64,000 nt of DNA from Eledone cirrhosa (taxonomy: Eukaryota). The translations under genes and the position numbers were made by a program. The DNA is taken from NCBI GenBank assembly GCA_964016885.1, contig OZ024740.1, positions 217,310,001-217,374,000 of the forward strand, given 5' to 3'. Numbering within the stretch: the first letter of the stretch is position 1; each line of letters opens with the position of its first letter. The notes beneath the pieces are model-generated. The model did no database searches. It had not been told where the DNA came from and saw only the letters and a list, made by a program, of their open reading frames with translations. Below, piece by piece: positions 9,867 to 11,788 of this stretch.

Positions 9867-11788
9867 ATGAATGTACCCATAATGGAAGAAGGTATGAAGG
9901 TGCATTTAGCATCGACTGTAACACGTGTGTGTGTCTAGAAAGTGGACGAGCGCAGTGTTCAAATAAGATATGTGACTATGGACAACGATCAACATGTTGG
10001 TATGAAGGTAGACGTTACACAGTAGGACAGACAATCCAACAGTCATGTAATACATGTGTATGCAGAGCCAATGGTCAAATGGATTGTACAAAGAATACAT
10101 GTCAGTGTACATATAAAGGAAAAAATTACAATATTGGCCAGAGGTTTAATGAGGATTGCAACCAATGTGAATGTTTATCTAGTGGTATTGTACGGTGTTC
10201 TAACAAACGATGTCAATGTTTTGCCAATGGAAGAACATATCCAGTGGGGGCTACCTTTCAAAGGGAATGTAACACTTGCAAGTGTGACATTAACGGCAGA
10301 ATAGTGTGTACTGACAACATATGTAAATGTTTTGAAAATGGAAGATCTTACCCCATTGGTGCTACATTTAGCAAGGACTGCAATACATGCACATGTCAAC
10401 AACATGGACAGGTCCGATGTACAAATAACCCGTGTCAATGTACACATAAAGGACAGGTTTATCAAGTTCGTCAAAGATTTAATGATGATTGCAACCAATG
10501 TGAATGTTTATCTAGCGGTACAGTGCAGTGTTCTAACAAGGCATGTCAATGTTTTGAAAATGGAAGATCTTACCCCATTGGTGCTACATTTAGCAAGGAC
10601 TGCAATACATGCACATGTCAAATAGATGGTCGTATACAGTGTACAAGCAACCCATGTACTTGCACCTATAACAATATGGCTTATAATTTCGGACAACAAT
10701 TCAGGAAAGGTTGTAACACCTGCACTTGTCAACAAAATGGACAGGTCCAATGTACAAATAACCCATGTCAATGTACATATAAAGGACAGGTTTATCAGAT
10801 TCGTCAAAGATTTAACGATGATTGTAACCAATGTGAATGTTTATCTAGTGGTACAGTGCAATGTACCAGTAACGTCTGTCAATGTACATACAACAACCAG
10901 GTCTATAATATCGGCGCTTCATTTAATCAGGACTGTAACACCTGTAGCTGTCAACAAAATCGACAAGTCCAATGTACAAATAACCCGTGTCAATGTACAC
11001 ATAAAGGACAGGTTTATCAAATTCATCAAAGATTTAACGATGATTGTAACCAATGTGAATGTTTATCTAGTGGTACAGTGCAGTGCTCTAACAAGCCATG
11101 TCAATGTTTTGAAAATGGAAGATCTTACCCCATTGGTGCTACATTTAGCAAGGACTGCAATACATGCACATGTCAACAAAATGGACAGTTCAAATGTACA
11201 AATAACCCATGTACTTGCACCTACAACAATATGGTCTATAATTTCGGACAACAATTCAGGAAAGGTTGTAACACCTGCTCTTGTCAACAAAATGGACAGT
11301 TCAAATGTACAAATAACCCATGTACTTGCACCTACAACAATATGGTCTATAATTTCGGACAACAATTCAGGAAAGGTTGTAACACCTGCACTTGTCAACA
11401 AAATGGACAGTTCCAATGTACAAATAACCCTTGTCAATGTACATACAACGGTAAACGTTATGATGTTGGTTCTATATTCTACAATGATTGCAATAAATGT
11501 CAGTGCTATGATGATGGAAGAGTCCAATGTGAACAGAAAATATGCCCCAAACCCTGCGTATTCAACGGACAAACCTATTCTGTGGGAGAATCGTTTAAAA
11601 ATGACTGCAATACATGTACATGTGGACAGTTTGGTCAAGTAGGATGTACTAACAAGTACTGTCCTAAAACATGCCAATACAACGGAAAAATCTACACAGC
11701 TGGCCAAATATTCACGGCTCAAGATAATTGCAATACATGTCGATGTTCAGCTGGGCAAGTCAAGTGTACCAACTTAATATGTGGTCAA
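9867..11788 (+). CDS. Gene A exon 2: 17 tandem 6-Cys pacifastin-like/half-VWC modules (secreted Cys-rich protein, ~665 aa spliced)
   Basis: Acceptor TTTTTACAG ending at 9866, open frame, repeats of C-x16-CNxCxC-x3-G-x3-C[TS]xxxC (mostly 111 bp), donor GTGAGT at 11789. Confidence 0.93.

Follow-up and report, generated by a model that had tools for sequence, protein, structure and literature searches.

Mosaic module arrays in two pacifastin-like paralogues of Eledone cirrhosa and their probable origin by in-register exchange

The window analysed here is a 64,000-nucleotide (nt) stretch of the Eledone cirrhosa genome (C1:217,310,001-217,374,000 of a 3.0-Gb assembly), and it contains two paralogous genes, A and B, in each of which the second exon is an array of cysteine-rich, pacifastin-like modules. 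Positions given without a contig name are those of the window. From comparison of the sequences, we propose that the module differences between A and B arose by in-register, homology-driven unequal exchange together with gene conversion, within and between at least 17 near-identical paralogues, and we assign this explanation a probability of about 0.8. The modules are mosaics of a few segment types, and the length differences are exact multiples of 111 nt. Modules that otherwise differ would have three segment types in common: an F part and an H part, each spanning nt 1-69 of the module, and a C part of the QQNG type (nt 70-111). Along such common tracts, misaligned copies could pair and exchange, and modules would thereby be gained, lost or given new neighbours. 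Interlocus gene conversion would additionally have homogenized modules 1-8 of A and B. The sequence is compatible with meiotic unequal crossovers, conversions and replication slippage alike as the underlying events. What we describe is a coding tandem-module array under unequal exchange and conversion; the mechanism is a textbook one and belongs to the ordinary evolution of repeat genes.

The module arrays of genes A and B

Exon 2 encodes 17 modules in gene A and 16 in gene B, counted as C[NK]xCxC cores in the plus-strand translation. One module comprises 111 nt, or 37 amino acids, with six cysteines. The cores are spaced by 37 residues in both genes, with the exceptions of the first spacing (43) and the last two (39 and 41), and the cysteine columns are invariant (18 of 18) across 98 three-module windows. 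The open periodic frames extend over 9842-11956 in gene A and 44958-46868 in gene B. At 10307-11448 and 45437-46328, Tandem Repeats Finder (TRF) detects repeats with periods of 111, 222 and 333 nt, a periodicity far above chance, and higher-order periods of 222, 333 and 555 nt occur in the arrays. The exon boundaries are common to A and B, with the acceptor TTTTTACAG/AT and the donor CAA/GTGAGT, where the slash marks the splice position.

The initial annotation had named the modules by the start of their N-half (F, CFENGRSY; H, CT[HY]KGQVY; N, CTYNNM; Q, CTYNNQ) and had given a string of types for the centre of each gene. Translation and a module table reproduce both strings: from module 5 onwards, the order of types is F H F N H Q H F N N in gene A and F H F N H F H F N in gene B. 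Modules 1-8 are collinear between the genes, with five mismatches in 899 nt, and the last three modules are likewise collinear, in agreement with the same annotation. Its three kinds of C-half behind the F-type N-half are also present, namely CNTCTCQQHG in the fifth module of gene A (A5), CNTCTCQIDG in A7 and CNTCTCQQNG in A12. Finally, the exon lengths, 1922 nt in A and 1811 nt in B, differ by exactly 111 nt as had been stated.

Mosaic relation of the two exons and the positions of the switches

When the two exons are aligned with a single 111-nt gap, the placement of which is free over 11171-11279, 96 mismatches are left, and these are concentrated in modules 9-12 (25 of 54 positions in the N-half of module 10). 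If in-register jumps are permitted, the resulting mosaic alignment has a cost of 61, with four pieces and three switches. First, B1-8 corresponds to A1-8 (5/899 mismatches). Second, the stretch from nt 109 of B8 to nt 88 of B10 corresponds to that from nt 109 of A10 to nt 88 of A12 (5/202). Third, nt 89 of B10 to nt 93 of B12 matches nt 89 of A5 to nt 93 of A7 (11/227). The last piece runs from nt 94 of B12 to the end and matches gene A from nt 94 of A13 to the end (22/483). Within the module, the three switches are placed at nt 109-9, 89-90 and 94-100, and none falls at the cysteine core. Compared with A, gene B would thus be without the H'-Q pair, would carry an extra H-F(QIDG) pair and would have one N module fewer. 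The N-halves of A13 and A14 are identical (0/54), and this N-type pair accounts for the net surplus of 111 nt in A. Half-module swaps, from which the initial annotation had derived the A/B difference, describe it less well than the three module-scale, in-register switches. Other paralogues show the same kind of relation. The exon of L014 equals that of A minus two modules, with a switch anywhere within nt 70-90; that of L013 equals A minus two and minus one modules, with switches inside identical tracts of 74 and 108 nt; and that of L021 equals B plus two modules.

The two parts of a module have different histories in several comparisons. Differences between F and N modules are dense up to nt 69, also at synonymous positions within the core, and nearly absent over nt 70-111. 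F modules with a QIDG C-part are identical to the remaining F modules up to nt 75 and depart from them in nt 76-101. We compared A12 with three other modules of gene A in the two parts separately. A12 and A13 differ at 40 of 69 positions in nt 1-69 and at none of 42 in nt 70-111 (Fisher p=1.4e-11), and the reverse is seen for A12 and A7 (0/69 and 12/42; p=2.8e-6). The control pair, A12 and A6, differs in both parts (31/69 and 20/42; p=0.85), and therefore the C-part is not simply slow-evolving. We also considered the QIDG C-part as a recent copy of the DING C-part of module 4, and rejected this since the residues are alike and the codons differ.

Recombination tests and a module phylogeny, which the initial annotation had suggested, return a signal as well. 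The pairwise homoplasy index (PHI) test on 46 unique central modules gives p=0.0005, with none of 2000 permutations reaching the observed value. In the approximately unbiased (AU) test on nt 1-69, a clade of the groups Fd, Nd and Qd is rejected (p=0.009). The tree of nt 70-111 places the C-parts of F, N and Q modules, some of which are identical, in mixed order within a clade of 99% support.

To locate the switches more generally, we collected 14 pairwise mosaics. They yield 19 switch intervals, which are not independent events: eight include nt 70-75, eight lie at the module junction (nt 102-111 and 1-11) and three lie in nt 87-100. The F, N and Q types have a common consensus at nt 70-78 and 89-107 but not in the core. 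Within the core (nt 55-69), F and N differ at five synonymous positions. Since the core differs synonymously in this way and similarity starts only at nt 70, the core is the edge of a shared tract.

These positions bear on the strongest of the alternatives, the one favoured by the initial annotation, in which exchange proceeds by half-modules, with crossovers at the CNTCTCQ core, and N- and C-halves recombined freely there to give the A/B difference. It draws on the three kinds of C-half that F N-halves precede, on the many switches that start at nt 70, just past the core, as in the eight intervals counted above, and on the branching of the F and H parts to different C-parts right after the core. 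However, the three A/B switches lie elsewhere, 11 of the 19 intervals fall at the junction or in nt 87-100, and the five synonymous differences leave the F and N cores little identity for pairing. We therefore do not retain the conserved core as the site of exchange, and we regard the half-module explanation as a whole as unlikely.

The pairing of parts is also more structured than free shuffling would suggest. Among 295 modules, the H part is joined to five types of C-part (47, 37, 7, 4 and 1 cases) and the F part to two (33 and 28), and the QQNG C-part is joined to F, Q, N and four minor types of N-part. In 193 modules from 12 genes (without L028 and six near-identical copies) only 33 pairings of N- and C-parts occur, and the association across the module junction is as tight as that within the module (2.33 versus 2.42 bits). 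The largest arrays of the family, described below, are strings of dimers (H-Q and H-F) and trimers (H-F-N'). We read the array grammar as a small segment graph, joined through three shared tracts, and not as the free combinatorial shuffling of half-modules that had been proposed.

The paralogue family and the weighing of alternative origins

A 341-nt probe from the head of exon 2 finds 26 places in the genome, 17 of them at an identity of at least 92% and nine at 77-80%. Thirteen stand in tandem at 217.32-217.72 Mb, one broken copy lies at 217.747 Mb, two lie at 207.6 Mb and one on C4, and nine are distant. Nineteen of the 26 places were retrieved for module counting. Along the tandem array the counts are, in order, 17 (A), 16 (B), 14, 15, 16, 14, 15, 16, 14, 15, 18, 16 and 9; the copies at 207.6 Mb have nine and eight modules, and the C4 copy has 11. 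One further close copy, L027 (C1:217.747 Mb), is broken, with two frames and without the start ATG of exon 1. Each gene has a single large exon of contiguous modules only. Of 15 exon lengths, 14 equal 1922 minus k x 111 nt; the exception is L018 (C1:217.56 Mb), in which a 4-nt GACT duplication in module 7 breaks the frame.

In a related subfamily with big arrays, one open exon per gene comprises 59, 57, 37 or 25 modules and reaches a length of up to 2206 codons. Its loci, L028 (C157), L029 (C451), L030 (C1:206.8 Mb) and L031 (C440), consist mostly of H-Q and H-F dimers, and the copies on unplaced contigs could be alleles of one locus.

By their flanks and tails, the genes of the tandem array form two groups, one with A and the 15- and 14-module genes and the other with B and the 16- and 18-module genes. 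In MAFFT, L024 and L025 show identities of only 68-77% in their upstream flanks, probably because of insertions and deletions, since the 341-nt head probe gives 96-98% there. A unit of three genes with 16, 14 and 15 modules occurs three times (C1:217.35-217.63 Mb; gene B and L013-L020), with flank identities of 99.7-99.9% and zero to four exon mismatches, and represents either a very recent segmental triplication or an over-expanded assembly.

A separate pacifastin-like locus comprises L012 and its neighbours on the minus strand of C2:217.29-217.38 Mb. It has open frames spaced by about 1.42 kb, with one module each (CYHDGKNFTAGESFMVDCNRCHCVGDGEVACTRMFC), over at least 80 kb, and TRF with a longest period of 500 gave no array there.

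Exchange also appears to have acted between genes. Modules 1-8 of A and B differ at 5 of 899 sites, in comparison with 54 of 1610 in the adjacent introns (Fisher p=1.5e-6), and one of the five differences is synonymous. The number of synonymous substitutions per synonymous site (dS) between A and B rises from 0.006 in modules 1-8 to 0.12 over the final 480 nt, a 20-fold range within one exon. The longest identical tracts measure 383 and 297 nt (P about 4e-4), and the ratio of nonsynonymous to synonymous substitution (dN/dS) in the tail is 0.2-0.7. Purifying selection alone does not account for the synonymous identity in modules 1-8, which points to interlocus gene conversion. Sharing extends to the big arrays. 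The Q block, which differs at no fewer than 20 of 54 sites from every other N-half of A and B, has matches of 92-96% identity and 102-105 nt length in dozens of L028-L031 modules; Q is thus common in a related subfamily and not special to gene A. Most central parts of A lie within zero to four mismatches per part of a big-array module, and the exon heads are 77-80% identical. The subfamilies thus have modules in common, which may have spread by conversion or stem from one source that was amplified recently.

In-register exchange or conversion, as the initial annotation had put it, is accordingly upheld in the lengths that are multiples of 111 nt, in the discordant histories of N- and C-parts and in the homogenized modules 1-8 of A and B, but is not borne out for the core as its site. 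Several points weigh against our explanation, and we collect them here. The switch intervals are by construction tracts that are identical in both partners, and their clustering says little on the sites of DNA breaks. The placement of an event depends on the reference: the switch in L023 falls at nt 70-78 against A and at nt 103-107 against B. The reverse AU test, with the F modules as one clade over nt 70-111, does not reject that tree (p=0.18, from 42 columns only), and the module groups for the AU tests were named after inspection of the data. The similarity to the big arrays could reflect recent amplification, for which no conversion is needed. The module order rests on the assembly, as only short-read contigs cover the stretch and these merge the paralogues. 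Finally, nine comparisons within the triplicated units show zero to four point differences and no change in module number.

This last observation concerns the rate. Because module number is stable in the triplicated copies, the exchange process is not fast, which argues against instability of the minisatellite kind, and we take the comparison as an indirect hint against a very high rate of the allelic rearrangement that the initial annotation had thought possible; some variation between alleles would be compatible with it. Genes with a flank divergence of 2-4% differ by one or two module events. A broader proposal, which we consider improbable, is that the 25-plus loci form a rapidly reassorting arsenal of multi-headed pacifastin-type proteins. 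The three shared switch tracts would then move modules within and between genes, even between subfamilies on different chromosomes, and individuals would differ in module number (8-59) and order. Unplaced contigs with exons of 25, 57 and 59 modules would represent alternative alleles, and the repertoire would keep pace with the variable proteases targeted in pathogens, prey or symbionts.

An artefact of assembly is very unlikely, either as collapse or misjoining of the near-identical 111-nt repeats or with A and B as two haplotypes of a single locus set one behind the other. In its favour, repeats that are 90-100% identical are difficult to assemble, a palindrome with 2.5-kb arms stands just upstream of the block of gene B, the three-gene units recur almost without change, and the private variants of gene A are unconfirmed by read contigs. 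Nevertheless, A and B have flanks that diverge by 3-5% and show many insertions and deletions, and the two blocks lie 35 kb apart among different transposon copies. Both frames are open, each architecture recurs in other copies with distinct flanks, and an exon of about 2 kb fits in a single long read. The 'other letters' in contigs of the upstream intron are the majority letters of the paralogues.

We see little prospect for a dedicated diversification system, in which high-rate germ-line or somatic reassortment would give each individual its own repertoire, as has been proposed for the sea-urchin SpTransformer genes. The clustered genes with a leader exon and a mosaic repeat exon, the segmental duplications, the module counts of 8 to 59 and the flanking microsatellites [(TG)n at 9250-9284, (CT)n/(TA)n at 5360-5721 and (AAC)n/(ACT)n at 15311-15696] would suit such a system, but nine comparisons of recent duplicates show no change in the modules beyond point differences. 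Least credible of all is an origin without exchange, by whole-module duplication and later point mutation with selection keeping some parts alike: the C-part does hold three of the six cysteines and the conserved Gly and Asn, and the tail dN/dS indicates some constraint, yet the identity of A12 and A13 reaches synonymous sites, the C-parts of H and F differ as much as their N-parts, and dS varies 20-fold in one exon.

The encoded protein, the gene model and neighbouring features

The Pfam profile Pacifastin_I (PF05375) matches gene A with 270.8 bits (E 2.4e-82) in 17 stretches and gene B with 266.3 bits in 16 stretches, the best stretch covering profile positions 5-33 of 40. The VWC profile (PF00093) matches with 212.7 bits in A and 209.8 bits in B, and its best stretch covers positions 1-42 of 57 only. 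The curated cut-offs are 27.9 bits for PF05375 and 27.6 bits for PF00093. A complete VWC domain has ten cysteines and a C-terminal subdomain, and the period of 37 residues with six cysteines leaves no space for that second subdomain. From the second to the sixth cysteine the module reads C-N-x-C-x-C-x3-G-x3-C-[TS]-x3-C, and its first loop has 16 residues. The pacifastin signature is C-x(9-12)-C-N-x-C-x-C-x(2-3)-G-x(3-6)-C-T-x(3)-C, with a first loop that usually has 9-12 residues.

A profile built from the 98 three-module windows matches pacifastin inhibitors, mucins, FnI and von Willebrand factor (VWF) sequences in the PDB with E values of 0.003-0.1. The matches include SGPI-1/2, LCMI I/II, PMP-C, MUC2, MUC5AC, MUC5B, fibronectin FnI pairs and the VWC region of VWF, and the pacifastin inhibitors are reached at E 0.003-0.05. 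An AlphaFold2 model of modules 5-7 is all-beta with a predicted local distance difference test score (pLDDT) of 87.4. Its best fold matches in Foldseek are VWF D assemblies, FnI pairs, MUC5AC/MUC2, NEL/NELL2 and the VWC domain of collagen IIA; no pacifastin chain is present among the matches listed, the remainder being a few unrelated chains of low probability. On the basis of these profiles and the model, the module is a pacifastin-like unit equivalent to VWC subdomain 1, with a predicted FnI-like fold, and not a full VWC domain.

The closest proteins in a large database share only 39% identity, and the nearest named ones are 'kielin/chordin-like' of Mytilus and 'tenascin-X-like' of Liolophura at 29-36%. 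One homologue has a signal peptide that is followed directly by modules. The list of homologues also contains proteins from Myxococcota/Polyangiaceae metagenome bins with the same Pacifastin/VWC Pfam domains, some of them with Kunitz domains in addition.

The predicted product is a secreted protein of modules only, which may act as a multi-headed protease inhibitor or as a binding protein; expression, splicing, secretion and inhibitor activity are predictions. Against an inhibitor stands the residue aligned with P1 of a solved inhibitor (CTRKAC), which is Asn in most modules. The exceptions to Asn are Lys in module 2 and in tail module 2 of the B type (CTKMYC), Gln in tail module 1 and Glu in L023. 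The tail modules carry CEQKIC and, depending on the paralogue, CTKMYC, CTNMYC, CTNKYC or CTEMYC. In tail module 2 (11552-11662 in A and 46557-46667 in B), the residues aligned with P1 and P1' vary among the 15 paralogues, with Asn in seven, Lys in seven and Glu in one at P1, and Met in 14 and Lys in one at P1'; they are two of 21 variable positions in the tail.

Coding tandem arrays that change by unequal crossing-over and conversion are known from mucin variable-number tandem repeats (VNTRs), the kringle IV-2 repeats of apolipoprotein(a) and the spidroins. The arrays described here resemble them in their in-frame head-to-tail units, whole-unit copy change and concerted evolution. In contrast to those systems, several module types share partial tracts here, so that exchange alters the order as well as the number of units, and the variation is documented between paralogues.

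Pacifastin precursors contain 1-42 domains and a signal-peptide exon, are often clustered and vary by gene or exon duplication; in the 42-domain Trichoplax gene, tapp-1, each domain is split over two exons (PMC2689174). A 2026 study reports 109 mollusc members of an 'ancestral' pacifastin lineage, some of them linked with VWC and FnI domains, and notes the reactive-site pairs K-M, E-M and Q-K in that lineage (PMC13388995). Genes A and B share with such multi-domain precursors, among them the arthropod PLD precursors and tapp-1, the six-cysteine module CNxCxC...G...C[TS]xxxC with its PF05375 match, a predicted signal-peptide exon 1, many domains per protein, clustering and a domain number changed by duplication. 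They differ from them in having all modules in one exon, with no linkers or dibasic sites and up to 59 modules in the family, and from tapp-1 in that the module is not split over two exons. The position aligned with P1 of the inhibitors is mostly Asn, and the first loop is longer than usual. The likeness to VWC, FnI and the E modules of VWF and mucins lies in the VWC profile match and in the best fold matches of the predicted structure, whereas the C-terminal CC..C subdomain of VWC is lacking. In gene architecture only, the family recalls the sea-urchin SpTransformer (Sp185/333) genes (PMC5491942 and PMC10887614), the proteins of which are unrelated to these modules. A literature search, which left out supplements, did not find a description of this family or of unequal exchange in pacifastin arrays.

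The genes offer a clean example of a cysteine-module family growing and reordering, in which an in-frame single exon and type-specific sites allow the events to be traced. They extend multi-domain pacifastin/VWC-like proteins to 59 modules in a single exon, with the nearest named relatives being mollusc proteins of less than 40% identity. If the modules are inhibitor heads, the valency and specificity of a secreted inhibitor would change with their number and order; should alleles differ too, the exon would be useful as a hypervariable marker.

The predicted gene model consists of a signal-peptide exon, the module exon and a last exon of four codons (Table 1). Exon 2 of gene A starts in codon phase 1 and ends at a codon boundary, and the predicted exon 1 is signal-peptide-like and has a phase-1 donor, GTAAGT. 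A stretch of 200 nt around exon 1 is conserved at 94-100% in the close copies and at 85-86% in three of the four big-array loci. The motif of exon 3 is present in 17 of 17 close copies and in none of the four big-array loci. Both genes lie in a duplicated block, the flanks of which align with 94.9% identity upstream and 96.6% downstream, and the downstream end of the block of gene A contains a gag-like retrotransposon fragment.

Table 1. Coordinates of genes A and B and of their duplicated blocks in the window
Feature	Position	Strand	Basis
Gene A exon 1, coding part (predicted; ccaccATG, MLYEILVVLAAFSFVNCYTN plus 1 nt, donor T/GTAAGT)	8272..8332	+	Open reading frame and donor scan
Gene A exon 2, 1922 nt, 17 modules	9867..11788	+	Acceptor and donor common to 15/15 paralogues examined; Pfam
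Gene A central modules 5-14 (F H F N H Q H F N N)	10325..11434	+	Module table; TRF 111/222/333
Gene A Q block: end of module 9 (TSNVC) with N-part and core of module 10 (CTYNNQ...)	10856..10960	+	Differs from all other A/B modules
Gene A modules 13 and 14, tandem N-type pair	11213..11434	+	TRF 11165-11434, period 111, 96% matches
Gene A exon 3, coding part (predicted; acceptor ...tttcattacag/ACTGGATACTACTAA, encodes TGYY and stop)	12721..12735	+	Sequence reading
Gene B exon 1, coding part (predicted; MLYEILVVFAAFSFVNCYTN)	43710..43770	+	Open reading frame and donor scan; conservation
Gene B exon 2, 1811 nt, 16 modules (central modules 5-13 at 45441-46439)	44983..46793	+	Module table; splice-site comparison
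Gene B exon 3, coding part (predicted; TGYY and stop)	47724..47738	+	Motif
Duplicated block with gene A	7652..14209	+	Self-BLAST pairing with 43099-49331, 93.4-96.7% identity
Duplicated block with gene B	43099..49331	+	Self-BLAST; flank alignment

Four sequencing runs of one study, covering two samples (X1-X3 and X4, respectively), were compared with the window as contigs of unrecorded kind. No contig of X1-X4 spans the module array, and in these short-read contigs, which merge the paralogues, no spliced contig and no joint or loose end was seen at 9867 or 11788. The summed contig depth of X4, a small run, is 2,600-39,000 over exon 2 (compared over 9804-11771) and 10-290 in the flanks. A difference of this kind could hint at abundant RNA, but contig depth cannot rank the parts of a gene and the kind of run is unrecorded, so that it gives no basis for that conclusion.

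The palindrome upstream of gene B is near-perfect and occupies 38002-42956: 38002-40475 pairs with 42956-40512 at 96.6% over 2490 nt, around a spacer of about 36 nt. Complementarity is complete (100%) over the outer 841 nt. Microsatellites are abundant in the palindrome, which ends 143 nt before the block of gene B. It could be real or a fold-back artefact of assembly. Transposon-like frames, named from their translations alone, lie at 25985-28030, 33206-35839, 54021-57671 (minus strand), 58995-64000, 13128-13928 and 48390-48935. They comprise two copies of a Helitron-like helicase, a frame of 1216 amino acids with reverse transcriptase (RT)-like motifs, and a gag-like frame with an endonuclease/RT-like element. 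A fragment related to the gag-like frame forms the downstream end of the duplicated block in every paralogue of the array.

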